Assembly (NCBI GenBank): GCA_963422645.2
Contig: CAXXVO010000008.1
Coordinates: forward strand, 96,001 to 160,000
Source: Alphaproteobacteria bacterium
GTDB lineage: Bacteria > Pseudomonadota > Alphaproteobacteria > UBA828
DNA length: 64,000 nt
Direction: 5' to 3'
Both the position numbers and the translations under genes were made by a program. This document shows, piece by piece, positions 3,885 to 28,355 of this stretch (its first letter is position 1; each line of letters opens with the position of its first letter). Below the pieces are notes generated by a model that had not been told where the DNA came from, did not search any database, and saw only the letters and a program-made list of their open reading frames with translations.

Positions 3885-4652
3885 GTGACCGACAGCGACC
3901 TTTCGGGGCGTGTCGCTCTGGTGACCGGTGGATCGCGGGGCATCGGCCGCGCGATCTGCCGGCGGCTCGCCAGGGCCGGCGCGTGGGTGGCGATCAACCA
4001 CTCGTCGAGCGACGAGGCCGCTCAGGAAACGCTGGCCAAGATCAGGGCCGATGGCGGAGAGGGCGGCGTCTACAAGGCCGACGTCTCGTCCTTCGACGCG
4101 ACCGATGCGATGTTCCGACGCATCGAGGCAGAGAGCGGCCCGGTCGACCTTCCGGTCACCAACGCCGGGATCGCCTCGTTCAAGGACGATGTCGATATGC
4201 CGGTCGATCTCTGGCGGCGGATCCTGTCGGTGAACCTGGACGGCACCTTTCACAGCGTGTGGCGCGCCAAGGCGGGCATGCTGGCCCGGGGCGACGGGCG
4301 CATCGTCTGCATCTCCTCGATCAACGGTCTGGCGCCGACCACGATGCAGTCCGACAGGCTGCTCGCCTACGGCACATCGAAGTCCGCCATCATCGGATTC
4401 TCGCGCAACTGCGCGGTCGCGTTCGGCCCGGCCATCCGCGTCAACTGCGTGGCGCCCGGCTTGATCGACACCGACATGACAAGCGGCATGAGCGACGAGA
4501 TGCGCCAACACATCATCGCAAGCACGCCCGCGGGCCGGACCGGCACGCCCGAAGACATCGCCGAGCTCACCCACTTCCTTCTCAGCGACGCCGCAGGCTT
4601 CATCACGGGCCAGACCTACGTCGCTTCCGGCGGTCTCGTCACACTGCCCTGA
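3885..4652 (+). CDS. Short-chain dehydrogenase/reductase (FabG-like)
   Basis: [16 protein letters not shown] (YxxxK), [13 protein letters not shown]. Confidence 0.93.
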
Positions 4653-4719
4653 CAGGCTTTCGTCGCCTGTCGGCCTCAGGGAATCAGTCCTAGATCGTCA
4701 ACCTGTCGAAAGATCTCAG

Positions 4720-5142
4720 CTATCTCGACCGCCCCGGCATGCCCTCGTCCTTGGGAAGGTCCGGGTGCAGCAGATTCCAGGGCTGTGCGCTCGTTACGTA
4801 AATCTCCCGGCTCGGTTGGTACTTGCTCGGGTCGTCCAGGCTTCCCGCATAGAGCGCCCGGACCCCCTGGTGCGCCCCGTTGGTCAGGAAGAGCGGCGTA
4901 CCGCACGCGGGACAGAACGCCCGTTTCATAGAGCTTCCCGTATCCGAGGATCGTTCGAACCAACTCGGCTCGCCGCGTCGCAGAGAGAAATCGCTCTCCT
5001 TCACCACGATGACCGGCATGTAGGCGCCGCCGGTCGCCTGCTGGCAATGGGTGCAATGGCAGTTGCCCATGTAGCGCGGGGGAGCCGCACACTCGTACCG
5101 AATTGCGCCGCATGCGCACCCGCCGCCGAATGGGACTTCCAT
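4720..5142 (-). CDS. GFA-family (CENP-V/GFA) zinc protein
   Basis: GGCACGAIRY, CHCTHCQ, RAFCPACGTPL; ATG at 5142 after GGAGGAG. Confidence 0.9.
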   Translation of the reverse strand: MEVPFGGGCACGAIRYECAAPPRYMGNCHCTHCQQATGGAYMPVIVVKESDFSLRRGEPSWFERSSDTGSSMKRAFCPACGTPLFLTNGAHQGVRALYAGSLDDPSKYQPSREIYVTSAQPWNLLHPDLPKDEGMPGRSR

Positions 5143-5180
5143 TTTCGCTCCTCCCCTTGCGTCGCTGGCCGATCCTGGTG

Positions 5181-6290
5181 TCAGACCTCCGTCCGCACGG
5201 CGTCCGCCGCGAGTGGCGTGAGCCGCGCCGGATCGAAAGGCGCGAGGTCTACGTGGCTGCTCGCGCCGTCGGCGACCAGCTCGGCCACCGCCTCGCCCGT
5301 GGCCGGGGCGTTCAGCATTCCCCACACGCTGTGAGCGGTCGCCACGTAGGCGCCGTCCACGCCGGGGACGGCGCCGATGAGCGGCAACCCGTCCTCGACG
5401 ACGGGGCGGTAGCAGGCCTGCTCGGCCAACACCTCGGCGTCGCCGAGCGCCGGCGCGACCTGCGCCGTCATGGCGCGAAGACGAGCGGCGCCGCCCTCCT
5501 CCGGCGCCACCGCAGCGGGGTCCACCGGCAGTGGCGCCTCGCTGGAGAGGCCGCAGACGTAGGTCGTGCCGTCGGGCCGGGGATAGACCTCCGGCGAGGC
5601 GAAGTCGCCCGTCGCCGTCTCGAGTTCCACGAAGAGCGCGTGGGGCGACGGCTCGGGCGTGTAGCGAAAAACCACGCTGTGGCCCTTCAGGCCGTAGATC
5701 GCCGGCAGCGGCAGCCAGCGGCTCGCGAGCACCGACCATGGGCCCATGGCGATGACGACCGCGTCGCCTGCGACCTCCTGCCCGTCCACGATGGCGCCAC
5801 GCAAGGCGCGGCCCTCGCCGAACACGAGGCCGGTGACCGTGCCCATGAGCAGGCGCGTACCTGCCCCGATCGCCGCGCGCATCATGGCCTTGGTGAAGGC
5901 CGCCGGGCTGACCTGGGCCGTGGTTTCGCTGGTGCCGAGCTGGCGGTGGACGGCTGCGTCCTGCGCCAGCCAGCCGGGCCCGTCGAGCTGCCGGAAGGAG
6001 CCCACGTCCCGGCGCGCGCTGGCGACCACGCCGAGCGTGTCGAGCCTGCGGTAGCCCCACTCGTCGTCGATCGTCTCGGCAAGCTCGGCGTGCAGAGCGA
6101 AGCTGCGCCGCGCCAGCGGCTCGACCGGCGAGCCATCGCACCAGTCGAGCGCCAGGAACCCGCCCGACTTGCCCGAGGCCGCGTTGGCGATTCCGGTGCG
6201 CTCGATCACCACGGCCTCGATGCCGCGCTGTCCGAGGAAGTAGGCGATCGACGTGCCGATCACGCCGCCGCCGCAAATCAACACCCGCAT
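5181..6290 (-). CDS. FAD-dependent oxidoreductase, D-amino acid/glycine oxidase family
   Basis: ICGGGVIG, ASGKSGGFLA, ACYRP, HSVWGMLNAPATG. Confidence 0.9.
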   Translation of the reverse strand: MRVLICGGGVIGTSIAYFLGQRGIEAVVIERTGIANAASGKSGGFLALDWCDGSPVEPLARRSFALHAELAETIDDEWGYRRLDTLGVVASARRDVGSFRQLDGPGWLAQDAAVHRQLGTSETTAQVSPAAFTKAMMRAAIGAGTRLLMGTVTGLVFGEGRALRGAIVDGQEVAGDAVVIAMGPWSVLASRWLPLPAIYGLKGHSVVFRYTPEPSPHALFVELETATGDFASPEVYPRPDGTTYVCGLSSEAPLPVDPAAVAPEEGGAARLRAMTAQVAPALGDAEVLAEQACYRPVVEDGLPLIGAVPGVDGAYVATAHSVWGMLNAPATGEAVAELVADGASSHVDLAPFDPARLTPLAADAVRTEV

Positions 6291-6448
6291 GCGCGCCTCG
6301 CGACGGCTGCATCCAACCGCATAGTGATCGACACCACCCTTCCGATCGGGCCAGCGAAGCGCAGCCTAACGCCCGCCCGGCTCCGGTTGCAAAGGCGGGC
6401 GCCTCGGCTAAAGTCGGCGCCCTTTCACCCACGGATGGACGGACGCTC

Positions 6449-6832
6449 ATGCTCAACCGCGAGGAACTGATCGCCCTCGTCGAGGACGCTTACTTTTCTA
6501 ACGTCGACAACAAGAACCTTGAGCCTGCGCTTGCGTGCTTTGCGGAAGACGCCGAGCTCCGCATCCAATCGGCGCACGTGAGCCACGTCGGCCACGATCA
6601 GATCGGGCGCATGTTCCAGGACTTCATGGCCGCGACGAAGATCATCTACCACGGCGACTTCAGCCACGTCGTCGACGTGGAGGATCAATGGATCGCCTCG
6701 CAGTTCGTCGCCCGCAACGACTACGACGACGGCCGTCACGTGGAAATGCGCAACTGCAACTTCTTCCAGATCGAAAACGATCGCTTCAAGCGCGTCACCA
6801 TCTACATGACCGACGAGAACCCGTTGGTCTGA
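6449..6832 (+). CDS. NTF2/SnoaL-like protein
   Basis: 127 aa; YFSNVD...LACFAEDA...GHDQI pattern of SnoaL-like folds; typical codon usage. Confidence 0.75.
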   Translation: MLNREELIALVEDAYFSNVDNKNLEPALACFAEDAELRIQSAHVSHVGHDQIGRMFQDFMAATKIIYHGDFSHVVDVEDQWIASQFVARNDYDDGRHVEMRNCNFFQIENDRFKRVTIYMTDENPLV

Positions 6833-7039
6833 CCGCGCTTCGCGGTAATTTCAGTTCCCTCAAGCGCCGGGCGCTCGCTCCGCTCGCTTGGCTTTCGCGC
6901 CATTCGGCGCGGCGCGCAGTCGCGCGCTCCGGGCCTGGCGGCCGGGCCCTGCTCGCGTCCCACGATTCGTCGGAGACCGTTGCTTGCGGCAAAGGGCGCC
7001 CTTCGCCAGACTCGCCGCCGGCATTGGTGAGGAACAGGC

Positions 7040-8050
7040 ATGAGCGACCGCCCGCAGATCGACCCGCCCTATCTGCTCTTCCTTGGCGACGCGCGCGATG
7101 AGCTCGCCGCCAAGACCGCGCGTGGGGTGTTCGTCTTTCGCCCGGAGTGGTGCCTCGGCCAGATCAGGCTGCCGGGCTGCAAGGCCCGCCTCGACCTGCC
7201 CGAGATGACGGTCGAGGACGCGGCGGCCAAGGGCGCGAAGTGCCTCATCGTCGGCGTCGCCAATGCGGGCGGCGTGGTCAGCGAAAGCTGGACCGCCACC
7301 CTCGTGGCGGCGCTCGAAGCGGGCCTCGACGTGGCCAGCGGGCTTCATGTGCGCCTGAGCGACCTGCCGGCGGTGCGCGATGCGGCCGAGGCCAACGGCC
7401 GGCATCTCTTCGACGTGCGCCATCCGTCCCAGGAATTCAAGGTGGGGACGGGCTTGCGCAGAGCCGGCAAGCGCCTGCTCACGGTGGGCACCGACGCCTC
7501 GGTCGGCAAGATGTACGCCACGCTCGCGCTCGAAGCCGAATGGCGCCGGCGCGGCGTCAACTGCACCTTCCGCGCGACCGGGCAGACCGGAATCTTCGTC
7601 GCCGGCCGCGGGGTCTCGGTCGATGCGGTGGTGGCGGACTTCATCTCCGGCGCCACCGAGTGGCTCGCGCCCGAGAACGACCCGGATCACTGGGACCTCG
7701 TCGAGGGGCAAGGCTCGCTCTTCCACCCCTCCTACGCCGGCGTGACGCTCGGCCTGATCCACGGCGCCCAGCCCGACGCCATCGTGATCTGCCACGAGCC
7801 GACGCGTACCACCATGCGGGGCCTGCCGGGCTGGCCGCTGCCCGAGCTCGGCGCCTGCATCGAGGCCAACCTTCAGGCGGCGCGGCTCACCAATCCCGAC
7901 GTCATGTGCGCGGGTATCTGCGTCAACACCGAGGCGCTGGGAGCGGCGGAGGCCGACGCGCTGCTGGAAGAACTGGGAGCGGCCCACGGCCTGCCCTGCG
8001 TCGATCCGATCCGCACCGGTGTGGGCCCGATCGCCGACCGCGTTCTCTAA
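7040..8050 (+). CDS. dgcN: DUF1611-family protein, probable D-glutamate N-acetyltransferase
   Basis: AKTARG, GTDASVGKMYATL, ATGQTGI, DAVVADFISGA, VEGQGSLFHPSY; adjacent to an enolase-superfamily racemase as in dgcN-dgcA. Confidence 0.85.
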   Translation: MSDRPQIDPPYLLFLGDARDELAAKTARGVFVFRPEWCLGQIRLPGCKARLDLPEMTVEDAAAKGAKCLIVGVANAGGVVSESWTATLVAALEAGLDVASGLHVRLSDLPAVRDAAEANGRHLFDVRHPSQEFKVGTGLRRAGKRLLTVGTDASVGKMYATLALEAEWRRRGVNCTFRATGQTGIFVAGRGVSVDAVVADFISGATEWLAPENDPDHWDLVEGQGSLFHPSYAGVTLGLIHGAQPDAIVICHEPTRTTMRGLPGWPLPELGACIEANLQAARLTNPDVMCAGICVNTEALGAAEADALLEELGAAHGLPCVDPIRTGVGPIADRVL

Positions 8051-8062
8051 GGACCGCGCCTG

Positions 8063-9046
8063 GTGAGCCGGCGCCTCACCGTGCGCCTGGAGACGTGGCC
8101 GCTCGCGCGCGCCTTTCGTATCTCCCGCGGCGCCAAGACGGAGGCCCGCGTCGTCGTCGCCGAGATCGCCGACGGCCCCAACACCGGCCGGGGCGAGGCG
8201 GTCCCCTACGCCCGTTACGACGAGACACCTGAGGGGACGTGCGCGGCGATCGAGGGCCGGCGTGAAACGATCGAGAGCGGCATTACCCGGGAGGCGCTGC
8301 AGGACGCGCTGCCGCCGGGCGCTGCCCGCAATGCGCTGGACTGCGCGCTCTGGGACCTGGAGGCGAAGCAGACCGGCCGGCCTGCCTGGGCGCTGGCGGG
8401 GCTCGACGAGCCCCAGCCTTGTACGACTGCCGTGACCCTCAGCCTCGATACGCCCGAGAGCATGGGCGAGGCCGCCGCCTCGCATTCAGCGCTTCCCCTG
8501 CTCAAGCTCAAGGTCACTGGCGAGGGCGACCTCGCGCGAATCCAGGCGGTCCGCGAGAATGCGCCCGGCGCCAGGCTAATCGTGGACGCGAACGAAGGCT
8601 GGACCGTGCCGATGCTTGAGGCGTTCCTGCCAGCGTTCGCCGACCTCGGAGTCGAGATGGTAGAGCAGCCGCTGCCGGCTGCGGACGACGCCGCACTCGA
8701 GGGCCGTCAATTCGCGCTCCCGCTCTGCGCCGACGAGAGCTGCCACACGCGGGAGGACCTGACACGGCTCGCGGGCCGCTACCCGATGATCAACATCAAG
8801 CTGGACAAGACCGGGGGGCTCACGGAGGCGCTCGCGCTCGCGGTGGAGGCGCGGGCCATGGGATTCGACATCATGGTGGGCAGCATGGTCGGCACCTCGC
8901 TCGCCATGGCGCCGGCGGCGCTGCTCGCCGGCTTCGCCGACTACGTCGATCTCGACGGCCCGCTGCTGCTGGCCCGCGACCGTTCGCCGGGACTCAGCTA
9001 CGACGGCGCGGTCATGGCGCCACCGGAGCTCGCACTCTGGGGATAA
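8063..9046 (+). CDS. dgcA: Enolase-superfamily dipeptide epimerase / N-acetyl-D-Glu racemase
   Basis: FRISRGAK, KLK, VDANEGW, EQP, ADESC, NIKLDKTGG, DLDG. Confidence 0.85.
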   Translation: MSRRLTVRLETWPLARAFRISRGAKTEARVVVAEIADGPNTGRGEAVPYARYDETPEGTCAAIEGRRETIESGITREALQDALPPGAARNALDCALWDLEAKQTGRPAWALAGLDEPQPCTTAVTLSLDTPESMGEAAASHSALPLLKLKVTGEGDLARIQAVRENAPGARLIVDANEGWTVPMLEAFLPAFADLGVEMVEQPLPAADDAALEGRQFALPLCADESCHTREDLTRLAGRYPMINIKLDKTGGLTEALALAVEARAMGFDIMVGSMVGTSLAMAPAALLAGFADYVDLDGPLLLARDRSPGLSYDGAVMAPPELALWG

Positions 9047-9156
9047 GAATGTGGATACAGGCCTTGCCCGGCCTTGTCTCTCTGCGCTCGATCTGAAACT
9101 CTGGCGCGACACTGGATCGGCCCGGCTACCGCCTGGGCCAGCGCAGCGAGAGGGCC

Positions 9157-9807
9157 ATGGGCCGCCTGTTGGAACTCGGAGAGCGGTTGGAGCTCGTCTC
9201 CATGGACCCGCACTTCCATGACATCAGCATCTCCCTCTACCGGGAGACCGGGGAGGGTGACACCTCCGGCTTTCTCGCGCACAGCTACAGCGGGAAAGAG
9301 GGCGCCACCGAGCGATTGGCCTTCGTGATGCGGGCAATGGCGGTCGTGGGCGGCATGGGGCCCGCACCGGGGCAGCCGGGCCGCTTGGCCTTTGCCTGCG
9401 GCGGCGCGCACCGGGCGGCGGTGAGGCGGCTCTTTCTTGAGGCTTGCAAGAAGGCGACGGGCGCCGAGGTTGCAGCGCTGCCCATGAGCATCTACGACAA
9501 GAAGAACGATCTCACCATCGACGCGACGGCGACCGGAGGTGGCGGCTACCGGCTTGCCACCGCCGGCGGCGAGGCCGGCGACAAGGTGGCACGGCGCGTG
9601 GATGGTATGACCCGGGGGCTGATCAAGCTGGCCGAGATGGAGCCGGGCGCGGCGCCGGGCGAAGCTCGCTTCGCCTGCGGCTCCGCCCATGACGAGCTGG
9701 TGGGCCTCCTGCTCGGCCGGGCGCTCAACGTCCGCGCCGCCATGCGCGAGGCGGAGGCAGCGGCGGCGCGGGGCGTCCTCGCCGCGCCGAGCGCGCAACA
9801 GACCTGA
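9157..9807 (+). CDS. Hypothetical protein with a duplicated FACGxAH motif; first gene of the corrinoid operon
   Basis: GAGGG RBS, host-like codon usage, 18-bp gap to the next gene; no family recognised. Confidence 0.75.
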   Translation: MGRLLELGERLELVSMDPHFHDISISLYRETGEGDTSGFLAHSYSGKEGATERLAFVMRAMAVVGGMGPAPGQPGRLAFACGGAHRAAVRRLFLEACKKATGAEVAALPMSIYDKKNDLTIDATATGGGGYRLATAGGEAGDKVARRVDGMTRGLIKLAEMEPGAAPGEARFACGSAHDELVGLLLGRALNVRAAMREAEAAAARGVLAAPSAQQT

Positions 9808-9825
9808 GGGTCGGGAGCGGAAGCG

Positions 9826-10869
9826 ATGACGGCAGTACCCTCCATGACCAGCCGCGAGCGGGTGCTTGCGGCGCTGAAGCGCGAGCCGGTGGATCGCACG
9901 CCCGTGTGCAACCCCACCTCGGTCGCGACTGTCGAGCTGATGGACCTGGTGGACGCGAACTTCCCGCTCGCGAACCGCGACCCGGAGCTGATGGCGCGGC
10001 TCGCCGCCACCAGCTACACCGAGCTCGGCTTCGACAGCATCATGCCGGTCTTCTCGATCATCCAGGAATCGTCCGCGCTCGGCTGCAAGATGCAGTGGGA
10101 GCAGAAGGACAACTGGCCGACCGTGCGCATGCGCGAGCCGATTTGGGAGGACGTGGACGACATCCGCATCCCCAACGATTTCCTCCTGCACCCGGACATG
10201 GCTTGCGTGATCGAGGCGATCCGCCTGCTGCGCCGCGAGTTCGGCGACGAGGTCGCGATCATCGGCAAGACCATGGGGCCGTGGACGCTGGGCTATCACT
10301 GCTTCGGCGTCGAGCCCTTCCTGCTCTTGTCGCTCGACGATCCGGGCAAGACCAAGCTCGCACTCGACCGCATGAAGGAGGCGACGATCGTCTTCGGGAT
10401 GGCGCAGATCGAGGCGGGCGCGGACGCGCTCACGGTCCCCGATCACGCCACCGGCGACCTGGTCAGCGCCGACTACTACAAGCGCTACCTCAAGGACCTC
10501 CACATCGAGTTGGTGGAGCGCCTGCCGGTGCCGCTCATCCTCCATATCTGCGGGCGCACCGTGGACCGCATGGGCTACATCGCCGAGACCGGGATCGCCG
10601 CCTTCCACTTCGATTCCAAGAACAAGCCGGCCGAATCCGTGGCGGTGATGGACGACCGGGTATCGCTGGTCGGCAACATCAACAATCCCGAGACGCTCTT
10701 CGCCAAGGGGCCCGACGACGTGCGCAAGGAGGTCTATGCCAACCTCGACGCCGGCGTGCAGGGGGTGGGGCCGGAATGCGCCATCCCGCTCCAGACCTCG
10801 GTCGAGAACCTGCGCGAGATTCCGCTGGCGGTGCGCGACTGGCACGCCGAGCACGACCGCCCGCACTAA
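9826..10869 (+). CDS. MtaA/CmuA-family methyltransferase (UroD fold)
   Basis: MTSRERVLAAL..EPVDR.PV, GPWTL, zinc ligands LHICG and PECAIP, LVGNIN. Confidence 0.9.
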   Translation: MTAVPSMTSRERVLAALKREPVDRTPVCNPTSVATVELMDLVDANFPLANRDPELMARLAATSYTELGFDSIMPVFSIIQESSALGCKMQWEQKDNWPTVRMREPIWEDVDDIRIPNDFLLHPDMACVIEAIRLLRREFGDEVAIIGKTMGPWTLGYHCFGVEPFLLLSLDDPGKTKLALDRMKEATIVFGMAQIEAGADALTVPDHATGDLVSADYYKRYLKDLHIELVERLPVPLILHICGRTVDRMGYIAETGIAAFHFDSKNKPAESVAVMDDRVSLVGNINNPETLFAKGPDDVRKEVYANLDAGVQGVGPECAIPLQTSVENLREIPLAVRDWHAEHDRPH

Positions 10870-10909
10870 GGCCCTGTGACACCCCGTCCATTTCACCACT
10901 GAGTCCCCC

Positions 10910-11659
10910 ATGGCTGAACTTGCCGACATCGCCAACGCGGTGATCCGCGACGAGATCGAGGAGTTTCTCGAGCGTCCCGACGAGATCGAGCGCAACGTCG
11001 CGCACTTCGCGCGCACGCGTCCTGAGATGCAGGACATCGCCGCCGCGTTGATCGAGGGCGACAATCATACGGTCGACGCACTCACCACGCAGGCGCTGGA
11101 GGCGGGCACCGAGGCGCTGGAGATCATGGACGACGGCCTGATCGCCGGCATGGGCATCGTCGGCATCAAGTTCCGCGAGAACTTCATCTTCGTGCCCGAG
11201 GTGCTGGCCTGCGCGCGGGCGATGAAGGCGGGAATGGCCCATATCGAGCCGATACTCTCGGCCTCGGGCGTCGAGCCCCTCGGTACCGTGATCATGGGCA
11301 CGGTCAAGGGCGACCTCCACGACATCGGCAAGAATCTCTGCATCATGATGCTCTCCGGCGCGGGCTTCGAGGTGGTGGATCTAGGCGTGGACACGTCGGA
11401 AGACGAGTTCATTGCCGCGCTGGAGGAGCACGGGGCGCCAATCATGGGCATGTCGGCGCTGCTGACCACGACGATGCCGAACATGGGAAAGACCATCGAG
11501 GCGCTGATCGACGCCGACCTCCGCGATGATGTGATGGTGATGGTGGGCGGCGCCCCGGTGACCGAGGAGTTCGCCGACGACATGGGCGCGGACGGCTACG
11601 GCAAGGACGCGCTCTCCTGCGTGGCACTGGCCAAGAAGCTGATGGAAGAGCGCGGTTAG
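10910..11659 (+). CDS. Corrinoid (cobalamin-binding) protein, MtaC/MtbC type
   Basis: Cap domain GLIAGM..VG.KF....FVPEVL; GTVKGDLHDIGKN (DxHxxG), SALLTTTM, VGGAPV. Confidence 0.95.
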   Translation: MAELADIANAVIRDEIEEFLERPDEIERNVAHFARTRPEMQDIAAALIEGDNHTVDALTTQALEAGTEALEIMDDGLIAGMGIVGIKFRENFIFVPEVLACARAMKAGMAHIEPILSASGVEPLGTVIMGTVKGDLHDIGKNLCIMMLSGAGFEVVDLGVDTSEDEFIAALEEHGAPIMGMSALLTTTMPNMGKTIEALIDADLRDDVMVMVGGAPVTEEFADDMGADGYGKDALSCVALAKKLMEERG

Positions 11660-11667
11660 GCAGGCCG

Positions 11668-13662
11668 TTGCCGAAGATCAGCCAAGAGGACTATCAGCAG
11701 CGGCTTGATCGGCTCACCGAGATCTTCGCGGATATCGTGAGTCATGCCGACGAGCAGGCGACGCAGCGCTGCCCCTACCGCGATGCGCGCGACCGCTGCA
11801 CCGCGGCGTTCTCGTGCGGCAACCAGATTCCTGCCGTCGAGAAGGGCGCGCCCGCGACCTGCGGCCACGACGGCACCTTCGACTATAGCGACGCGTGGGA
11901 GGATGACCCCGCCGCCGAGGAGCGTGCGAAGAAGAAGCTCGGCGCGATCAGACAAGCCGCCGCGGCGCAGCGGGAAGGCGCACCGCGACCCACGGGACCC
12001 GGCACCGTCTCCCACGACGGCAGAACACAGTCGCTCGCCATCGGCATGACGCTCTTCGACTGCGCCGACGAGCTCGCCGTCGAGGTGCCGACCTCCTGCC
12101 AGCGCAACGGCCGCTGTCACGAATGCGTGGTCGAGGTGAGCGCGGGCGATGAGGCTCTGTGCGCCCGCACCGAGGCGGAGGGATTTCTGCGCGCGCCCTA
12201 TCGCCTCGCTTGTCAGGCGATGGTCGAGCGGGACGACATCGACGTTGCGTTCGCACCGCTCCGCCGCCGCCCTCGCATCCTGGTGCGCGCCCATGCGGAT
12301 GCGGCCGGCGCGCCCGCGACGCTCGACCCCCTCGTCACCCGGCGGGGCGAAGAGGTGTTGTATGACGGCGACGTGGTGGACCGCTACCGGGGCAGCATGT
12401 TGGGTCTCGCGGTCGATCTCGGCACCACGACGGTGGTGCTCGACTTTGTCGATCTGGAGACCGGCAAGAGCGTGCACAGCGCCGCCTTCGAGAACCCGCA
12501 GGCCTTCGGCGGCAGCGACGTCATGCACCGTATCTCTTACGACCGCGAGGACAAGGCGGGCGAGCTGCAGAAGGCAGCGGCATCGGCCATCAACCGCGCC
12601 ATCGTTGACGGCTGCGCCCGGCTCGGCACCAACCGCCAGGCGATCTACGAGATCGTGGTCGCGGCCAACCCAACCATGCGCGATATCCTGTTCAAGTTGG
12701 ATGTCCAGGGAATCGGCCAGAAGCCCTACAAGTCTTCCATCGAGCACGCCTTCCTCGCCGGCGAGCGGGCGAACACGGCGCTCAGCGTCCGCGCGCTGCG
12801 CTTGGGCCTGCGCGCCAACCGTGCGGCCCGCGTCTATGGGCTGCCGCTCATCGCGAGCCATGTGGGGGGCGATGCCGCAGCCGCCCTCGTGGCGCTCGAA
12901 GAAGGGTTCGCCGACGCCGATACCGTGATGCTGGTCGACATGGGCACCAACACCGAGGTCGTGCTCAAGCACCGGGGCCGGATGCTCGCCGCCTCCTGCC
13001 CGGCGGGGCCGGCGTTCGAGGGCGGGCTGGTGCGCTACGGCATGCCGGCCTGCGACGGCGCCATCGAGGCGGTCCGTCTCGGCGAAGACGGCGAGGCCGC
13101 CTGCGAGACCATCGGCGGCAAGGAGCCGGTGGGGCTCTGCGGCTCCGGCCTCATCGACCTGCTGGCGGAGCTGCGCCGGGCTGACGTGCTGACCGCCAAG
13201 GGTGTCTTCACCGCCGACCGCAAGCAGAGGGAGATGATGGTGGTGCCGGAGCACGGGATCACCTTCTCCAAGGAGGACGCCAGCAACCTCGGCCAGGCCA
13301 AGGCCGCCAACTACTGCGGGCAGTACATCGTCATGCGCGCGCTCGGCGTCGATCCCGCTGGGATCGATCGGCTCTATCTCGCGGGCGGCTTCGCCAACTA
13401 CGTGAACGTGCGCAGCGCCATCGCCATCGGCCTGCTGGCGCCGGTACCGGAGGAACGCGTCGTCAAGGCCGGCAACGCGGCGGCGCGCGGGGCGCGGGCG
13501 ATCCTGCTCTCGGCCGCCCGGCGGCGCGCGCTGGAGCGCGAGGTCCAGGACATCGAGCATATCGAGCTGGAGACCACGCCCGATTTCTTCGACCTCTTCG
13601 TGGACGGCTGCCAGCTCAAGCCCATGCCCTCGCACCTCGCACCTGAAGGGACCGCCGCATGA
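11668..13662 (+). CDS. ASKHA-family reductive activator of corrinoid proteins (RamA/RACo-like) with 2Fe-2S domain
   Basis: CQRNGRCHEC...RLACQ ferredoxin; DLGTTT, NPQAFGGSDVMHRI, DMGTNTE, AGPAFEG, CGSG, LAGGF, GNAA. TTG start uncertain. Confidence 0.9.
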   Translation: MPKISQEDYQQRLDRLTEIFADIVSHADEQATQRCPYRDARDRCTAAFSCGNQIPAVEKGAPATCGHDGTFDYSDAWEDDPAAEERAKKKLGAIRQAAAAQREGAPRPTGPGTVSHDGRTQSLAIGMTLFDCADELAVEVPTSCQRNGRCHECVVEVSAGDEALCARTEAEGFLRAPYRLACQAMVERDDIDVAFAPLRRRPRILVRAHADAAGAPATLDPLVTRRGEEVLYDGDVVDRYRGSMLGLAVDLGTTTVVLDFVDLETGKSVHSAAFENPQAFGGSDVMHRISYDREDKAGELQKAAASAINRAIVDGCARLGTNRQAIYEIVVAANPTMRDILFKLDVQGIGQKPYKSSIEHAFLAGERANTALSVRALRLGLRANRAARVYGLPLIASHVGGDAAAALVALEEGFADADTVMLVDMGTNTEVVLKHRGRMLAASCPAGPAFEGGLVRYGMPACDGAIEAVRLGEDGEAACETIGGKEPVGLCGSGLIDLLAELRRADVLTAKGVFTADRKQREMMVVPEHGITFSKEDASNLGQAKAANYCGQYIVMRALGVDPAGIDRLYLAGGFANYVNVRSAIAIGLLAPVPEERVVKAGNAAARGARAILLSAARRRALEREVQDIEHIELETTPDFFDLFVDGCQLKPMPSHLAPEGTAA

Positions 13663-14687
13663 CCACCGCACCGCTGATCGTCATCGGCGAGAACATCCAC
13701 TGCACCCGTGTCGCGCTCCGCAAGGGCAAGCGCATCGCAGAGCGCGACGGCGCTGAGGTCATCTTCTACGAGACCGCAGAGGGCGAGGAGCGCGCGCTGC
13801 CGGTGACGGCGGAGGCGAAGCGGACCAAGGACTACGAGGAAGGGCGGGTCAAGCACGTCCAGGTCGCGATCGAGACCGCGATGGAGACGGCGGCGGGCGA
13901 TCCGGCCGAGGGCCTGCGTTACATCGAGGCGCAGATCCGCCATCAGGAGCGCACAGGCGCCGCCTTCCTCGACCTCAACGTCGACGAGATCGCGCCCAAG
14001 CTCGCCGTGCAGACCGGCGCCATGGCCTGGCTCGCCGCCACGGTTCAGGAGATGACCGAACTCCCGATCTCCGTCGATTCCTCCAGCGTGGACGTGATCC
14101 GCGCAGGCCTGGAGGCGCTCGCGCCGGCCAAGATGCGCCCGATGCTCAACTCGGCCTCGCTGGAGCGGTTGGATGCGCTCGACCTCGCGCGGGAGCACGA
14201 CTGCCGCGTGGTGGTGACCGCGGCCGGCGAGCGAGGGATGCCCGACGGCGCCGACGAGCGCGTGGCGAACGCATCCCGCATGGTGGAGGCCGCCTTGGCG
14301 AGAGGGTTCGCCATCGGTGACCTCTATATCGACCCGCTGGTCTTCCCGATCTCGGTCGACTCCAGCTTCGGCAACCACTGCTTCGACGCGATCCGCACCT
14401 TGCGCGCGCGCTTCGGCGACGAGGTCCACATCACCGGCGGCATGAGCAACGTCTCGTTCGGGCTGCCGGCGCGCAAGCTCCTGAACGAGATGTTCGTGCT
14501 GCTAGCGGTCGAGGCCGGTGCCGATGGCGGAATCATGGACCCGGTGGCGAGCCCGCCGGAGGCGATCCTCGGCATCGACCGCACGGAGCCTAACTACAAG
14601 CTAGCCGAAGACGTGTTGATGGGGCGGGACGAGCACTGCATGGCCTACATCCGGGCCTGGCGAAAAAGCAGGCGCAAGGCCAAGTGA
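13659..14687 (+). CDS. Methyl-corrinoid:tetrahydrofolate methyltransferase (pterin-binding, AcsE/MeTr-like)
   Basis: IGENIH, LDLNVD, SVDSS, LNSAS, IDPLVFP, GGMSNVSFGLP.RK; ATGA overlap with the activator. Confidence 0.88.
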   Translation: MTTAPLIVIGENIHCTRVALRKGKRIAERDGAEVIFYETAEGEERALPVTAEAKRTKDYEEGRVKHVQVAIETAMETAAGDPAEGLRYIEAQIRHQERTGAAFLDLNVDEIAPKLAVQTGAMAWLAATVQEMTELPISVDSSSVDVIRAGLEALAPAKMRPMLNSASLERLDALDLAREHDCRVVVTAAGERGMPDGADERVANASRMVEAALARGFAIGDLYIDPLVFPISVDSSFGNHCFDAIRTLRARFGDEVHITGGMSNVSFGLPARKLLNEMFVLLAVEAGADGGIMDPVASPPEAILGIDRTEPNYKLAEDVLMGRDEHCMAYIRAWRKSRRKAK

Positions 14688-14700
14688 AAAAGAGACACCC

Positions 14701-15102
14701 ATGACCGAGACCGAACGGCCGCCGGACGCCGAGCCCGCGCTCCGCACGCTCGCCATGCCCGCCGACGCGAACCCCAACGGCGACATCTTCGGCGGCTGGG
14801 TGCTGGCGCAGATGGACCTTGCCGGCGGCGTTGTGGCGGCGCGGCGCGCCGGCGGACGCTTGGCCACGGTGGCGGTGGAGGCGATGCGCTTCCACGCCCC
14901 GATCGCCGTCGGCGACCTCGTGACCTGCTACGCCGAGGTAGTGAAGACCGGGACGACCTCGATCACCATCGACATCCAGACCTGGGCGCGCCGGCGGCGC
15001 GGCACCGTGGAGGTGAAGGTGACCGAAGGGACCTTCATCTACGTTGCCATCGACGACAACGGCCGGCCCCGCCCGCTCCCCGAAGAGACGGCGGAGAGTT
15101 GA
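14701..15102 (+). CDS. Acyl-CoA thioesterase (YciA-like hotdog fold)
   Basis: AMPADANPNGDIFGGW..AQMD, ATVAV, FIYVAID..GRPR. Confidence 0.92.
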   Translation: MTETERPPDAEPALRTLAMPADANPNGDIFGGWVLAQMDLAGGVVAARRAGGRLATVAVEAMRFHAPIAVGDLVTCYAEVVKTGTTSITIDIQTWARRRRGTVEVKVTEGTFIYVAIDDNGRPRPLPEETAES

Positions 15103-15122
15103 CGATTGGAGCGAGACCGTCT

Positions 15123-15161
15123 TTGACGGGCTCGCGACAGGCCGCGACGGCGGCCCGTCAA
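15123..15161. terminator. Hairpin between convergent genes, probable terminator
   Basis: TTGACGGGC ... GCCCGTCAA 9-bp inverted repeat with an inner TCGCG/CGCGA stem. Confidence 0.45.
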
Positions 15162-15174
15162 GAACGCACGCGCC

Positions 15175-16605
15175 CTAGGAGCGGGCGCTGACGGCGGGGT
15201 CGTGGGCCGGGTCGAGGCCGCGGATGACGGTGCAGGGCATCGGTGCCGTCCGCAGCTTCTCGCACGCACGATTGGCGTCGTTCTTGTAGAGGCCCAGAAA
15301 GCGCGCCCGATAGAGGGTGCTGCGGCCGTCGGTACGAGGCGTGAGCGTCGCCGCCGCATCGTTGAGGAGCGGCGCGCGCGCCGACGCCCGGCGCATAGCG
15401 ATCTCTGCCGCTGTCACCGACTCATAGGAGCCCACCTGGACCCCCCAGGGGCCATCCACAGTCGACGCAGCCGCAGCCTTCTTTGCCGACGATGACTCGG
15501 TCGCGATCACCGAGTCCACGACCGCGAGCGTCGCGGCCACGGACTTCGACGGCGGGGGCAAGGGTCCCGAAACGACCTCGACCGGCTCGAGCGCCGGGCG
15601 CGGAGCCTGCGATGGGCTCTCGATCGGCTCGGCCAGCGGCGCCGCCGCACCCTCGGCCAGCTCGGGCGGCTGGGCCGCCGCAACCATGATCGCCGCCGGT
15701 TTAAATCGTGTTGCCGGCGCGGCCAATCCGGAGCCGGCGGGTGGGCGCGGAATGCCCGCGTAGCGGACGCGGCCGCGCTTGGCGTCGTTCTCGGCAATTC
15801 GCGTGAAGCCGAGGTCGAGGAGGTTGGCCATGTGGGCATTGCGCGAGTTCGGCGTCTTGCCGCCGAAGACAACCGCGATGACGCGCCGGCCGTCGCGTTC
15901 CGCCGAGGCCACGAGGTTGAAACCCGAGGCGCGGATATAGCCGGTCTTGATGCCGTCCATGCCGCGATAGCGGGCGAGCAGCTTGTTCGGCGTGCGATGC
16001 ACCCTGCCCTTGTAGCTGAAGCGCTGGTCGTCGAAATAGTGGTAGCGGTCCGGGAAGTCCCGCATCAGGGCTTGGGCGAGCCGCGACATGTCTCGCGCCG
16101 TGCTGCGCTGCTTCCGGTTCGGCAGCCCGGACGCATTGCGGAAGGTGGTTCGGGACATGCCGAGCTCTTGTGCCTTCCTGGTCATTATCCTGGCGAACTC
16201 GATTTCGGTTCCGCCCAGCGCCTCGGCGACCACCACGGCGATATCGTTGGCCGATTTTACGATCAGCGACTTGATCGCGTCCTCAGCACGGATCGTCGAG
16301 CCGGCACGCAATCCGAGCTTGGAGGGTGACTGCCCCGCCGCCCGCTTCGGGACCTTCAGCTTGGAGTCGAGGCTGAGCTTCCCCTCGTCGATTGCCTCGA
16401 AGAGCAGATAGAGGGTCATCATCTTGGTCAGCGACGCCGGGTATCGGCGTACGTCGGCGCTGCGGGAGCGCAGGACTTCGCCGGTCTCGGCATCGATGAC
16501 GATGGAGGCGTAGCGCGCCTGCGCCTCCTCAGCAGAGAAAACCTGCGATATGACGAGGATACAGAGCACGAGGACGAGACCGAGGGCGGCCGTACCGGGA
16601 CGCAT
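15175..16605 (-). CDS. D-alanyl-D-alanine carboxypeptidase with C-terminal SPOR domain
   Basis: Signal peptide, PASLTK (SxxK), SAND, KTGY; WGVQVGSY SPOR motif. Confidence 0.92.
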   Translation of the reverse strand: MRPGTAALGLVLVLCILVISQVFSAEEAQARYASIVIDAETGEVLRSRSADVRRYPASLTKMMTLYLLFEAIDEGKLSLDSKLKVPKRAAGQSPSKLGLRAGSTIRAEDAIKSLIVKSANDIAVVVAEALGGTEIEFARIMTRKAQELGMSRTTFRNASGLPNRKQRSTARDMSRLAQALMRDFPDRYHYFDDQRFSYKGRVHRTPNKLLARYRGMDGIKTGYIRASGFNLVASAERDGRRVIAVVFGGKTPNSRNAHMANLLDLGFTRIAENDAKRGRVRYAGIPRPPAGSGLAAPATRFKPAAIMVAAAQPPELAEGAAAPLAEPIESPSQAPRPALEPVEVVSGPLPPPSKSVAATLAVVDSVIATESSSAKKAAAASTVDGPWGVQVGSYESVTAAEIAMRRASARAPLLNDAAATLTPRTDGRSTLYRARFLGLYKNDANRACEKLRTAPMPCTVIRGLDPAHDPAVSARS

Positions 16606-23459: not shown

Positions 23460-25339
23460 GTAACTGCCCAGGTCGTCTGATTTGTCATTTTGGGCCAGTG
23501 GATTGAGGCGTTTCTCGTTCGGAGTTGGTGGAAAGGGCTTGACGGGAATTTCGGGAAATGACTCAACAACGACATGAGCAATCCCGAGTCGCCGCGCGGC
23601 CCTTCGACGGGAGCAGCGCCCGAAACGCCCGCGCAGAAGATCGCCCGCCTGGAGGAGGAGAACGCCCGGCTTCGGGAGGAAAATGCCTGGCTTCGGCAGC
23701 AGAACGCGCGGCTGGAAGAGCAAGTCGCGCGTCTCGTCGAGCGCATCGAGGAGTTGGAGCGCCGTCTCGGCCTCAACAGCGGCAAGCCGCCTTCGAGCGA
23801 TGGGCTGAGGAAGCCGAATTCGAAGCGGCGAACCCGAAGCCTGCGCGGCAAATCGGGCCGCAAGCCCGGTGGCCAGCCCGGCCACAAGGGCAAGACGCTG
23901 CGCCGCGCCGATCACCCGGATCGGGTGAAGGATCACGTCCCGGCTTCCTGCAAGGGATGCGGTTCGCCGCTTTCGGACGCGGCCAGGGCGGGAACGCCCG
24001 TCGCCCGCCAGGTGTTCGATCTGCCCGAGCCGAGCCCCCTGGAGGTGACCGAGCACCGGGCGCATGCCAAGTGCTGCGGGCATTGCGGGACGGTGACCCG
24101 GGCGGCGTTCCCCGACGGGGTGTCGGCGCCGGTGCAGTACGGCCCGCGCATTGCCGGGGTGGCGGTCTACCTTCAGCACGCTCACTTCCTGCCGGAGGAT
24201 CGGCTGTCGCAGGTGATGGCCGAGCTCTTCGGCGCGCCGGTGACGGCTGCGACGTTGGCGACGATGAGCGAGAGGGCGGCCGAGCGGCTTGCGGGACGCG
24301 GCCTTGCACATACAGGACCTGGCGGCGGGCACGGCGCGGGTGAAACACATGGACGAGACCGGCTTGCGGATCGGCGGTCAGACGCAGTGGCTTCATGTGA
24401 TCTGCACGCCGCTGCTGGCGGCGTACCGGGTCAGCGGCAAGCGCGGCGCCCTGCTCTCGGGTGTCTCCGGCATCGTCGTGCACGATCACTGGAAGCCGTA
24501 CTTCGCGATGGAAGGGGTGGAGCACGGCCTGTGCAACGCCCATCACCTGCGGGAGTTGCAGGCGCTGGTGGACATCGAAGGGGAGGCTTGGGCCCGGCGG
24601 ATGCAGCAGCTCCTGCGCCGAGCCAATCGCGCCGCCCGCATCGCGCTGGACAAGGATATCGCCGTTCCGGCGAGGCTTGTGGCGCTGATCGAGCGCCGAT
24701 ACGACGAGATCATCGCCGATGCGCTGGCCTTTCACGAGAGCCAACCACCGTTCTCGCCTGGCAAGAGGAAGAAGCGCCGGAAGCGAAGGATCGGTCACAA
24801 TCTGGCCTTGAGGCTGCGCGACCACAAATGCGCGGTGCTCCGGTTCCTGATCGACCTCGAGGTCGGGTTCACGAACAACGAGGCCGAGCGCGACCTTCGG
24901 ATGATGAAGCTGCGCCAGAAGATCTCCGGGGGCTTCCGGTCCGCGCAGGGGGCCGAGAACTTCGCCATCCTGCGCAGCGTCATCACCACCGCCAGAAAGC
25001 AGGGCTGGAATATCATCGAAGCCCTGACCAGCCCATCGGATCGGCTCATCGCCACCGTCAAGTGCGCGTAAGCTCACCTGGCACGGGTTCTCCAACAGCG
25101 GAGCCATTCTCATAAACGATCATGGTCGACGCCGTGCTGGACCACCCCATAGAATGAAAATCGGTGCCCGTCGCGCGGGCGGACTTCGGGCCACATCGGG
25201 GTAGCTTACCGGTCGCAGTCCGCAAGAGGGGCATCGTGAGCTGTGAAACCCGGCGACCCCAGAGGAGCACACGGGCGTCGCGTGGGTAGCGTTGTGCCGA
25301 ATCCCAGAGAATTTTCACAGCAAGAACCTGGGCAGTTAC
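23460..25339 (+). mobile_element. IS66-family element, type A copy 2
   Basis: Same IRs; 8-bp TSD GAAAATTG (23452-23459 and 25340-25347); 9 bp shorter than copy 1 (one CAACAGCGG unit lost). Confidence 0.96.
23574..25071 (+). pseudogene. IS66-family transposase, frameshifted (+1 T at 24289/24290) with in-frame NSG deletion
   Basis: Same extra T as copy 1; NSGKPPS instead of NSGNSGKPPS. Confidence 0.9.
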
Positions 25340-26373: not shown

Positions 26374-28355
26374 CTAGGCCGAACTTCCCCCCGGAAATGG
26401 GCTGATTTTCGGGGCTAAGCCGTTGATCTTACGGGCGTATCGGCCTTCGGCGCAGATGCAAAGTGTACCCATGTAAATGGAGAGAGGTGGTTGATATGAG
26501 GCGGGAGGTGGGCTATGTTCCGTCCCCATGTATATCGAGAGCGTCCCAAACCGGAACTCCCCGCCCGCAATCCTCCTGCGCGAATCATGGCGCGCGGGCG
26601 GAAAAATCAGAAAACGCACCCTGGCCAATCTGTCCAAGTGGCCGCCGCACCTGATCGACGGTCTGCGCATCCTGCTGCGCGGCGGAACCGCAGTGCCCCG
26701 AGGCGAGACGATCCGCGAGCACGACGGCTTCGACATCACCCGCTCGCGTCCCTTCGGCCATGTGGCAGCGGTGCTCGGCGCCCTGCGCGGCCTCGGTCTG
26801 GAACGGCTGATCGGCGCCAGGCGCTCGCGGCTGCGCGATCTCGTGGTGGCCATGATCGTCGCCCGCATCGTGGCGCCGCGCTCGAAGCTCGCCACCGCGC
26901 GCGGGCTCAGCGAGGACACGCTTGGCCACGGCCTCGGCGAGGCGCTCGCCCTGGGCGAGGTCGGCGAAGACGAGCTCTACGAGGCGATGGACTGGCTACT
27001 GCAGCGCCAGCCCAGGATCGAGCGGGGTCTGGCCGAGCGTCATCTCGAGGACGGCGCGCTGGTGCTCTACGACGTCACTTCGACCTGGCTGGAGGGGCGC
27101 TGCTGTCCGCTGGCGCGTCACGGCTACTCCCGCGACGGCAAGCGCGGCAAGCTGCAGATCGTGTTCGGGCTTCTGTGCAACGCGCAGGGCTGCCCGGTGG
27201 CGGTGGAGGTGTTCGAGGGCAACACCGCCGATCCGGCCACACTGGGCACGCAGATCGACAAGCTGCGCCGGCGCTTCCGGCTTTCGCGGGTCGTTCTCGT
27301 GGGCGATCGCGGCATGCTCACCGAGGCGCGCATCCGCGAGGAGGTGAAGCCGGCCGGGCTGGAGTGGATCAGCGCGCTGCGGGCGCCGGCGATCCGCGAG
27401 CTGGCCTCCGGCGGGACGCTGCAGCTCTCGCTCTTCGACGAGCGCGCCCTGGCCGAGATCCATCATCCCGACTTCCCCGGCGAGCGCCTGATCGCCTGCC
27501 GCAACCCGCTGCTCGCCGAAGAGCGCGCGCGCAAGCGCGAGGCCCTGCTCCAGGCCACCGAGAGCGATCTCGACGCGATCCGTGCGGCAACCCGGCGCGA
27601 CAAGCGCCGTCTCGCCGGCAAGGACAAGATCGGGCTGCGCGTGGGCAAGGTCATCGGCAAGCACAAGGTCGGAAAGCACTTCGACCTGGAGATCGCCGAT
27701 GACGGCTTCGCCTGGCGGCGCAACGCAGAGCGGATCGCCGAAGAGGCGGCGCTCGATGGCCTCTACGTCATCCGCACCAGCCTGTCCGAGCGCGAGCTCG
27801 GGGCCGAGGACACGGTGCGCGCCTACAAGGGATTGAGCCGCATCGAGCGCGCCTTCCGAAGCGTCAAGACGGTCGACCTCAAGGTGCGGCCCATCCACCA
27901 CTATCGGCCTGAGCGCGTGCGCGCCCACGTCCTGCTGTGCATGCTCGCCTACCATGTCGAGTGGCACATGCGCCAAAGGCTCGCCCCCATCCTGTTCGAC
28001 GAGGACGACCCGGCGGGCGCGGACGCCGCGCGCGCCTCCATCGTCGCACCGGCAAAGCCCTCGCCTTCGGCCCGGCGCAAGGCCGCCGCCAAGCGCACAC
28101 CAGACGGCGTGCCGGTGCATAGCTTCCGCACCCTCCTCGAAGACCTGGCGACCATCGCCAGGAACAGAGTTCAGCCGAAACTGCCCGGAGCACCGCCCTT
28201 CGACCTGGTCACCAAACCGACGAAGCTGCAGCGCCAGGCGCTCGACCTGCTCGGCGTCAGCCTGTAGCGTACCCAGTACGCGACTCCGCGAAACGGTGCT
28301 TTCCAAAGCAACCGCAATGGCTTAGCTCAATATCCGCTCCGGAAGTTCAGTCTAG
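26374..28355 (+). mobile_element. IS1634-family element
   Basis: Imperfect IRs CTAGGCCGAACTTCC / GGAAGTTCAGTCTAG; internal inverted motif GCTAAGCC(G/A)TTG near both ends; exact boundary ambiguous. Confidence 0.85.
26528..28267 (+). CDS. IS1634-family DDE transposase
   Basis: YDVTSTWLEG, HGYSRDGK, VGDRGM, LDGLYVIRT, IERAFRSVK..DL.VRPIHH; uninterrupted 579 aa. Confidence 0.93.
   Translation: MYIESVPNRNSPPAILLRESWRAGGKIRKRTLANLSKWPPHLIDGLRILLRGGTAVPRGETIREHDGFDITRSRPFGHVAAVLGALRGLGLERLIGARRSRLRDLVVAMIVARIVAPRSKLATARGLSEDTLGHGLGEALALGEVGEDELYEAMDWLLQRQPRIERGLAERHLEDGALVLYDVTSTWLEGRCCPLARHGYSRDGKRGKLQIVFGLLCNAQGCPVAVEVFEGNTADPATLGTQIDKLRRRFRLSRVVLVGDRGMLTEARIREEVKPAGLEWISALRAPAIRELASGGTLQLSLFDERALAEIHHPDFPGERLIACRNPLLAEERARKREALLQATESDLDAIRAATRRDKRRLAGKDKIGLRVGKVIGKHKVGKHFDLEIADDGFAWRRNAERIAEEAALDGLYVIRTSLSERELGAEDTVRAYKGLSRIERAFRSVKTVDLKVRPIHHYRPERVRAHVLLCMLAYHVEWHMRQRLAPILFDEDDPAGADAARASIVAPAKPSPSARRKAAAKRTPDGVPVHSFRTLLEDLATIARNRVQPKLPGAPPFDLVTKPTKLQRQALDLLGVSL

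Follow-up and report, generated by a model that had tools for sequence, protein, structure and literature searches.

A corrinoid methyl-transfer operon in a respiring host

Five tightly packed genes at positions 9157 to 14687 of a 64,000-nucleotide stretch of Alphaproteobacteria bacterium DNA (contig CAXXVO010000008.1, 68% GC; hereafter the window) encode a corrinoid hub of the kind known from aerobes, in which neither the two-protein substrate module nor a domain attached to the activase has been characterised. We consider it on balance probable that the operon is a self-contained corrinoid methyl-transfer module, in which two proteins demethylate a methyl-sulfur (or methyl-selenium) donor and the methyl group passes to tetrahydrofolate (THF). 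In the proposed cycle, an MtaA-like zinc enzyme and hyp216, a protein of an undescribed family, would take the methyl group from a small compound X-CH3 and place it on the Co(I) form of the corrinoid protein; X-CH3 would most likely be a methyl thioether or a methanethiol-type compound, with a methyl selenide possible. The pterin-binding methyltransferase would hand the methyl group to THF, after which it could be oxidised, assimilated or used for methionine. The RACo-type activase would re-reduce corrinoid that had lapsed into the Co(II) state, drawing on ATP and on its own 2Fe-2S domain, a step that would be essential in an aerobe. The genes concerned, and the gene that follows them, were as follows.

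9157–9807, plus strand: hyp216, 216 amino acids (aa), undescribed family, predicted partner subunit of the MtaA-like methyltransferase (no Pfam or NCBIfam match; conserved linkage; complex model)
9826–10869, plus strand: MtaA/CmuA-family zinc methyltransferase of the uroporphyrinogen decarboxylase (UroD) fold, 347 aa (TIGR01463, PF01208)
10910–11659, plus strand: corrinoid (B12-binding) methyl-carrier protein, 249 aa (PF02607 and PF02310)
11668–12003, plus strand: sm109, N-terminal four-cysteine domain of about 110 aa, fused to the activase (upstream of Fer2; a separate reading frame elsewhere)
11668–13662, plus strand: RACo/RamA-type ATP-dependent corrinoid reductive activase with a 2Fe-2S ferredoxin domain, 664 aa including sm109 (PF00111, PF17651, PF14574)
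13659–14687, plus strand: pterin-binding methyltransferase, 342 aa (PF00809)
14701–15102, plus strand: YciA-type acyl-CoA thioesterase, sixth co-oriented gene, 13 bases downstream of the operon (NF007970, PF03061)

Matches of open reading frames (ORFs) were scored against Pfam and NCBIfam. The family matches and coordinates agreed with the gene content given in an earlier, sequence-only reading of this DNA: a hypothetical protein, an MtaA/CmuA-family methyltransferase, a corrinoid protein, an activator and a pterin-binding methyltransferase. The five ORFs were separated by 18, 40 and 8 bases and finally overlapped by 4 bases, where the start of the pterin-binding methyltransferase runs into the activase stop, and their GC content at third codon positions (GC3) was high, at 0.87–0.94, as in real genes. 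As that reading also stated, no MttB/MtaB-type methyltransferase lay inside the operon, and the sole full-length MttB-family gene found in the genome was on another contig. The host had been described as apparently respiring, and we likewise counted it as such because a haem-copper oxidase subunit I was present in the genome and sdhAB and mdh were present in the window.

Conservation and distribution of the cassette

A synteny survey, proposed with the sequence-only reading, was run as a scan of one genome per species, with lineages taken from record titles. The five-gene arrangement is far beyond chance: the core order of hyp216, MtaA-like gene, corrinoid protein gene, (sm109) and RACo recurred in 80 loci of other genomes. 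At least nine bacterial lineages were represented, namely Alphaproteobacteria, Gammaproteobacteria, Acidobacteria (Bryobacterales, Vicinamibacterales), Gemmatimonadota, Latescibacterota, Poribacteria, Acidimicrobiia/Gaiellales, Planctomycetes and Dehalococcoidia/Chloroflexota. By record title these were sponge-associated, marine, lake, groundwater and soil-lineage bacteria, and the carriers were mostly uncultured: judged by the titles, all 80 loci come from metagenome-assembled genomes (MAGs) except one, from an uncultured isolate (L023), and no cultured carrier is named. The MtaA-like protein was 63–95% identical across the 80 loci, which, spanning phyla, indicated unusually strong purifying selection on the cassette; its relatives number in the thousands, and the best 120 clusters listed were all 79–95% identical. 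Parts near the MtaA-like gene were counted by tblastn, several misses being loci cut by a contig end. On this count, the corrinoid protein was found in 77 of the 80 loci, the activase in 71 and a homologue of sm109 also in 71.

Among 301 evenly sampled genomes of the host class, only 6 held the MtaA-like gene. Because the cassette was sparse, highly conserved and widely spread, it looks like an accessory module under strong constraint, probably mobile between lineages. The four-component layout had been taken as typical of acetogens and methylotrophic anaerobes; the cassette is not confined to anaerobes and occurs here in a respiring host. A leftover Wood–Ljungdahl or acetogen module was ruled out, since the host respires oxygen and the cassette is self-contained.

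Zinc site of the MtaA-like enzyme and the nature of the substrate

The MtaA-like protein scored 250.5 bits against TIGR01463 (cut-off 235.4), which placed it within that family, and 246.4 bits against NF004889 (cut-off 244), with 219 bits to PF01208. It remained below the equivalog level of both MtaA (NF040654, 226.8 against 400) and MtbA (NF041608, 192.7 against 600). The closest solved structure was that of Methanosarcina mazei MtaA (4AY7; E 5.9e-53, 183 bits, residues 1–338), and the remaining PDB matches at E 0.001 or better (19 in all) were uroporphyrinogen decarboxylases. Residues H240, C242, C318 and D263 were invariant in 34 family sequences, and H240, C242 and C318 aligned with the LHICG and PGC motifs of 4AY7. 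We take the HxC...C residues of MtaA to be its zinc ligands, with the zinc activating the thiol of coenzyme M. Judged from the zinc-thiolate chemistry of this conserved His-Cys-Cys site and from the nearest relatives, a methylated compound of sulfur (or selenium) is the favoured putative substrate; MtsA- and MtpA-type enzymes use this fold in both directions. We agree with the earlier suggestion that substrate specificity probably lies with the UroD-fold zinc enzyme.

A substrate outside the sulfur compounds could be methanol, a methyl halide or an ether with an O-methyl group, O-methylated sugars and sugar acids being examples; the zinc, or the Cys/His pairs of hyp216, would then serve the leaving group as a Lewis acid. 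We judged this alternative quite improbable. UroD-fold methyltransferases I for methyl halides and aryl methyl ethers do exist, among them CmuA, CdmB, MtvB and OdmB (PMC13222342), and the hosts of the cassette include sponge symbionts and marine and soil bacteria, whose habitats hold such compounds. Sugar-acid type genes and GntR/FCD regulators also lay near the cluster in a minority of loci: the commonest neighbours, counted without a background control, were 2-hydroxyacid dehydrogenase (16 loci) and GntR/FCD regulators (11 loci), with fewer MR_MLE, ILVD, SDR, lactonase and aldehyde dehydrogenase genes. However, this association was a minority pattern, and the protein itself scored as MtaA/CmuA family, with its 183-bit match to MtaA. 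No O-demethylase or haloalkane methyltransferase I chain was among the 19 PDB matches, and a tblastn search of plasmids (72,556 records) returned only matches below 60% identity, none annotated cmuA. CdmB, reported to be close to O-demethylases, has no zinc (PMC13222342). The sequence-only reading had proposed a methyl-THF-linked demethylation of methyl halides or methylated sulfur compounds; its sulfur option is favoured by our results, whereas the methyl halide became less likely given the invariant zinc triad and the zinc-free CdmB.

hyp216 as a predicted partner of the MtaA-like enzyme

The first gene of the operon had been noted only as encoding a hypothetical protein. It was indeed present in the operon, but hyp216 proved to be a constant neighbour and not a bystander: it was found in 75 of the 80 loci, directly upstream of the MtaA-like gene in 72, and the two genes occurred in the identical 6 of the 301 sampled genomes of the class, adjacent in each. 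No Pfam or NCBIfam model matched hyp216, even at E 10. Its family was small, with 330 representatives at E 0.001 or better in a profile search among 1.84 billion proteins; nearly all of the best 150 of these matches were about 210 aa long or were fragments, none exceeding 359 aa, and no fused or longer forms were found at 379–2000 aa, which is weak evidence. An AlphaFold2 model of good quality (predicted local distance difference test, pLDDT, 90.1; predicted template modelling score, pTM, 0.87) contained a pair of similar alpha/beta repeats; a near-invariant F-x-C-x3-H motif occurred in both (C81/H85 and C174/H178), and the C-terminal tail was conserved (G206-L208-A210-P211-Q214). Compared with the PDB by Foldseek, the model gave no match at E 0.001 or better, and the ESM Atlas search gave no usable match. 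A VIA-align comparison with 48,161 chains reached a Z of at most 6.2, the top matches being single alpha/beta domains of the urea carboxylase/KipI-like, HIT-like and ACT-like kinds; we assigned no fold because values of this size are common with VIA-align.

The MtaA-like/hyp216 pair was also modelled as a complex. The model-confidence score was 0.88, compared with 0.00 for the best of three controls, which supports binding; 58 of 80 solved complexes attained that mark, as did 2 of 110 mismatched pairs. At least 4% of contacts were shared between the runs, with a partner pLDDT of at least 80. The modelled interface comprised, on the enzyme side, family-invariant residues 36–41, 93–100 and H207, zinc ligands C242 and C318, and residues 319–323, and on the hyp216 side the N-terminal strands and the conserved tail (203–214). 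From this model, we infer that hyp216 sits on the zinc face of the MtaA-like enzyme, and the arrangement suggests that it helps build, or gates, the pocket over the zinc. Segment 87–100 of the MtaA-like protein was extremely conserved in the family and differs in MtaA, a conservation that the modelled interface would explain.

A further proposal, which we put forward only tentatively, is that the pair forms a heterodimeric B12-dependent methyl-thioether (or methanethiol) demethylase of aerobes, with hyp216 building the substrate pocket over the zinc, and that its genes may be those behind the corrinoid-type methyl-sulfide methyltransferase route. To our knowledge, that route was inferred from physiology in aerobic dimethyl sulfide degraders and was never assigned to genes. 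If the proposal is true, the harvested methyl group would enter the folate C1 pool, as in the window, or would pass directly onto homocysteine to give methionine without methyl-folate, as in Acidobacteria and Gemmatimonadota.

Carrier, activase and exchangeable acceptor modules

The corrinoid protein had MtgC_2 as its best NCBIfam match (203 bits, below the cut-off of 370) and was 52% identical to a paralogue on another contig of the same genome, contig C10. The activase comprised Fer2, the RACo middle domain and the RACo C-terminal ASKHA domain, and matched NF040756 (AcsV) at 280.9 bits, below the cut-off. Its Fer2 domain begins at residue 117 and is preceded by sm109, for which there was no Pfam match; in 46 loci, sm109 had its own ORF of about 109 aa, placed after the corrinoid protein gene and before that of the activase, whereas in the window it is fused. 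Its cysteines C35, C44, C50 and C65 were at least 90% conserved, and the window copy was the sole one found in this genome. The pterin-binding methyltransferase scored 75.9 bits against PF00809 and 199.9 bits against NF005719 (below the cut-off of 259), and it is predicted to transfer the methyl group between the corrinoid protein and THF.

The last gene of the cassette was exchangeable. A pterin methyltransferase followed the core in 42 of the 80 loci, mostly in Alpha- and Gammaproteobacteria and Acidimicrobiia. A PF02574 homocysteine methyltransferase lay inside the cluster in 20 loci (Acidobacteria, Gemmatimonadota, Latescibacterota, Planctomycetes and Chloroflexota), where it usually replaced the pterin module and was often accompanied by a small PF13769 protein; it was absent from the window operon, the PF02574 genes of this genome being on other contigs. 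Two loci (L015 and L071) held both modules. This swap indicated that one carrier is served by a constant MtaA-like/hyp216 pair together with a folate module, a homocysteine module or both.

The homocysteine-form genomes also bore on the direction of transfer. By a PF00809 search, 15 of these 20 genomes had a MetH-length ORF (1035–1284 aa), on which the MetH reactivation domain was present in all three of the 15 that were checked. In seven of the 20 (G304, G305, G309, G310, G312, G314 and G315), PF00809 matched only a FolP-like ORF and the MetH-length ORF. On this gene content, the cluster in those seven genomes, in which no stand-alone pterin methyltransferase was found, lacks a folate module of its own and is not the methionine synthase of the cell, and only the MtaA-like/hyp216 pair would be able to load the carrier, which points to the direction X-CH3 + homocysteine to X + methionine. 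By analogy, the window version would run from X-CH3 + THF to X + CH3-THF. Four Chloroflexota genomes differed, having no MetH-length ORF but a stand-alone pterin methyltransferase of about 340 aa; in the two of these that were searched, neither a MetH reactivation domain nor MetE was found, and the cluster there probably doubles as the split methionine synthase of the cell. At a single locus, L049 (Acidobacteriaceae MAG), a methylenetetrahydrofolate reductase gene (11674–13224) lay between the activase and the pterin methyltransferase, a lead that fits the proposed module but, coming from one locus, was not weighed as evidence.

The same parts could be run in the biosynthetic direction, with CH3-THF loading the corrinoid through the pterin methyltransferase and the pair methylating a thiol Y-SH, as MtaA methylates coenzyme M, to give a methyl thioether; candidates for Y-SH are sulfide, thiol cofactors and toxic thiols. 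The closest characterised relatives, MtaA and MtbA, are methylcobamide:thiol methyltransferases, the thiol-activating zinc triad is invariant, and the only donor module in the window operon is the one for CH3-THF. Nevertheless, we regarded biosynthesis as unlikely. In the seven homocysteine-form genomes in which no stand-alone pterin methyltransferase was found, the only donor would be methionine by way of a reversed homocysteine module, which would be odd given S-adenosylmethionine (SAM), and no conserved neighbour gene was found that would use the methylated product. Coenzyme M is an unlikely substrate or acceptor because ComA (PF02679), a marker of its biosynthesis, was not found in this 99.6%-complete genome, in which other coenzyme M routes were not searched.

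The operon could also be taken for the methionine synthase of the host, namely a split MetH whose PF02574 module has given way to the MtaA-like/hyp216 pair, with the methyl group moving from CH3-THF through the corrinoid to homocysteine. No MetH reactivation domain and only three short core-MetE-like genes were found in the genome, and the operon supplies all the remaining components of a split MetH. MetE and enzymes of the UroD fold come from related superfamilies, both of which activate a thiol via zinc, and this was counted on the same side. However, 20 sister loci pair a genuine PF02574 homocysteine methyltransferase with the MtaA-like gene, so the two are not substitutes, and 15 of those 20 genomes also have a MetH-length ORF. 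The separate PF02574 genes of this genome, the restriction of the MtaA-like gene to 6 of 301 genomes of the class, and the failure to find a SAM riboswitch in the window and eight loci also argued against this role, which we consider very improbable.

Apart from its separate PF02574 genes, this genome carries a second, complete set of corrinoid, pterin and RACo genes. This set, at 353691–359655 of contig C10, comprises an MttB-family methyltransferase (the only full-length one found in the genome), RACo, a pterin methyltransferase scoring above the NF005719 cut-off, DUF1638 (the only match in the genome) and an MtgC-like corrinoid protein. Its make-up resembles the MtgBCD-type core for quaternary-amine demethylation and split MetH in Ruegeria pomeroyi (PMC12478193). 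By its gene content, the window operon is a second, independent hub with its own predicted carrier, activase and folate module, and the separate hub on contig C10 argues against the window operon being merely the methionine synthase. Genes for a sugar-type ABC transporter lie upstream of the contig C10 set.

Points weighing against demethylation of a methyl-sulfur donor

Several observations weigh against the demethylation that we favour, or against the part given to hyp216 in it. CmuA, a methyl-halide enzyme, reportedly contains zinc, and zinc in a UroD-type fold does not prove a sulfur substrate. One of the three complex-model runs scored 0.00, and the complex score is a model confidence, not a measurement, for which our own alignments were supplied. 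Moreover, the barrel face of the modelled interface is presumably where the corrinoid domain is expected to dock; if it docks there, hyp216 might serve as a lid or have a regulatory role instead of taking part in catalysis. The direction of transfer is likewise one that we infer, and a methyl exchange between thioether and thiol is near-isoenergetic and could run either way. The missing stand-alone pterin methyltransferase may reflect MAG incompleteness; most of these genomes are MAGs, and by title only G304 of the seven is a single-chromosome assembly.

Genomic context gave little guidance to the substrate. No transporter or catabolic gene was present in the majority of loci when representatives of 56 neighbour clusters and 119 of 143 further ORFs were scanned. 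Neither a SAM nor a cobalamin riboswitch was found at 6000–16000 of the window (E 1 or better) or in eight whole loci (gathering score), where only tRNAs and one small RNA were detected, and regulation therefore gives no functional clue. On the side of the module, contigs of two metatranscriptome-labelled libraries, one of which bears the label sponge metagenome, covered hyp216, the MtaA-like gene, the corrinoid protein gene and parts of the activase and pterin methyltransferase genes at 90–99% identity, single contigs spanning hyp216/MtaA-like, MtaA-like/corrinoid and pterin methyltransferase/yciA. These are compatible with co-transcription in relatives, but the evidence is weak because the contigs are assembled, derive from those relatives and may contain DNA.

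Comparison with known corrinoid systems

The MtgB-MtgC-MtgD-MtgE/RamA hub of Ruegeria pomeroyi and Phaeobacter inhibens combines a split methionine synthase with a glycine betaine demethylase (PMC12478193; PMC5764234). The cassette resembles it in its aerobic host, its stand-alone corrinoid protein, pterin-binding methyltransferase and RamA/RACo activase, and its use of one carrier with exchangeable modules. Sister loci add PF02574 and the small PF13769 protein, and the best NCBIfam match of the corrinoid protein was MtgC. Unlike the MtgBCDE hub, the cassette has the MtaA-like UroD-fold zinc enzyme and hyp216 as its substrate module in place of an MttB-family enzyme, no DUF1638 in the operon, an activase with an extra four-cysteine domain, and all parts in one tight operon; the MtgC and MeTr models were matched below their cut-offs (203 against 370 and 199.9 against 259, respectively). 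A grouping with split methionine synthase modules, which the sequence-only reading had considered, was thus found for the carrier, activase and pterin parts, which are of the split-MetH/MtgBCDE type, but not for the MtaA-like/hyp216 pair, which was in no published pathway that we found.

The methanogen enzymes MtaA, MtbA, MtsA and MtpA share the fold and family of the MtaA-like protein, the HxC...C zinc site, a separate corrinoid protein and an ATP-dependent activase. The differences from MtaA and MtbA were that their equivalog models were not reached, that the host is aerobic with no ComA found, and that the cassette is coupled to folate or homocysteine and not to methanogenesis. The cassette enzyme also has a constant partner in hyp216, and such a partner is not known in methanogens. 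Kountz and Balskus proposed that type 1 mlp clusters of anaerobes serve methyl-sulfur and methyl-selenium metabolism and methionine salvage; these clusters have two or three Mlps, at least an Mlp2 and an Mlp3, lack an H4folate methyltransferase and were found in obligate anaerobes only (PMC10418091). The cassette fell outside type 1 as so described, with one UroD-family gene (a single Mlp) in the operon, hyp216, a pterin or homocysteine methyltransferase and an aerobic host.

CmuAB of aerobic methylotrophs and CdmBCA of Acetobacterium dehalogenans follow the same course from a UroD-superfamily methyltransferase I through a corrinoid carrier to a THF methyltransferase II (PMC13222342). CdmB, the one UroD-fold haloalkane methyltransferase that has a structure, is without zinc and groups with O-demethylases (PMC13222342). 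By contrast with the cassette, CmuA fuses the methyltransferase and corrinoid domains, and neither Cmu nor Cdm is known to have a hyp216-like partner. The literature searched held no description of the cassette; this search covered the papers cited and not their supplementary files, which might list such clusters.

Neighbouring genes and other features of the window

The sixth co-oriented gene, for the YciA-type thioesterase, scored 146.7 bits against NF007970 (cut-off 162) and also matched PF03061. It followed the cluster solely in the 6 closest of the 80 loci and probably does not belong to the module. Immediately before the operon, at 7040–9046, lie genes for DgcN (an N-acetyltransferase) and DgcA (N-acetyl-D-glutamate racemase), both exceeding NCBIfam equivalog cut-offs; these are probably unrelated to the cassette because they accompany the cluster in its closest relatives only. 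About 4 kb upstream of the operon, a domain of the glutathione-dependent formaldehyde-activating enzyme family (GFA; about 4720–5130, minus strand) forms the C-terminal end of an over-extended ORF (4720–6456). A consensus scan of 8800–15400 for promoters and terminators found nothing that resembles a promoter; the single terminator-like site that it gave lies on the opposite strand and does not exceed what is expected from shuffled sequence.

Elsewhere, the window is rich in insertion sequences, with four IS66-family ORFs and one IS1634-family transposase ORF (1383–2165, 24289–25071, 26528–28267, 30729–32381 and 49867–51372); two of the IS66 ORFs had identical scores and are probably copies of one element. 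Genes for a B12-dependent methylmalonyl-CoA mutase and a MeaB GTPase, with an MsbA-like ABC exporter gene between them, occupy 37752–43062, which brings the B12-using systems of the host to at least three. A class I methyltransferase-like ORF (51777–52652, minus strand) scored 27 bits, against a cut-off of 180, to the model of CpaM, a corrinoid protein-associated methyltransferase, probably by chance. Two further neighbours in other genomes were noted as single-locus leads, not as evidence: a gene for a dimethyl sulfoxide (DMSO)-reductase-family enzyme with a DmsC gene downstream of the cassette in L045 (Vicinamibacteraceae MAG, 11365–15226), and a fused MsrA/MsrB methionine sulfoxide reductase gene upstream of it in L081 (Pirellulales MAG, 4606–5916).

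Implications

Corrinoid methyl-transfer hubs were long regarded as anaerobe biochemistry. The work on roseobacter MtgBCDE showed that such hubs also operate in aerobes and are important to the flow of carbon and nitrogen in the ocean (PMC12478193). The cassette described here provides a second substrate module for these hubs, of which we found no description in print, and brings with it two protein families, hyp216 and sm109, that have no Pfam or NCBIfam match. The parts of the cassette are small and soluble. If its substrate were identified, the methyl-sulfur (or methyl-halide) cycle would gain a further route, and a folate-independent synthesis of methionine could be added as well.

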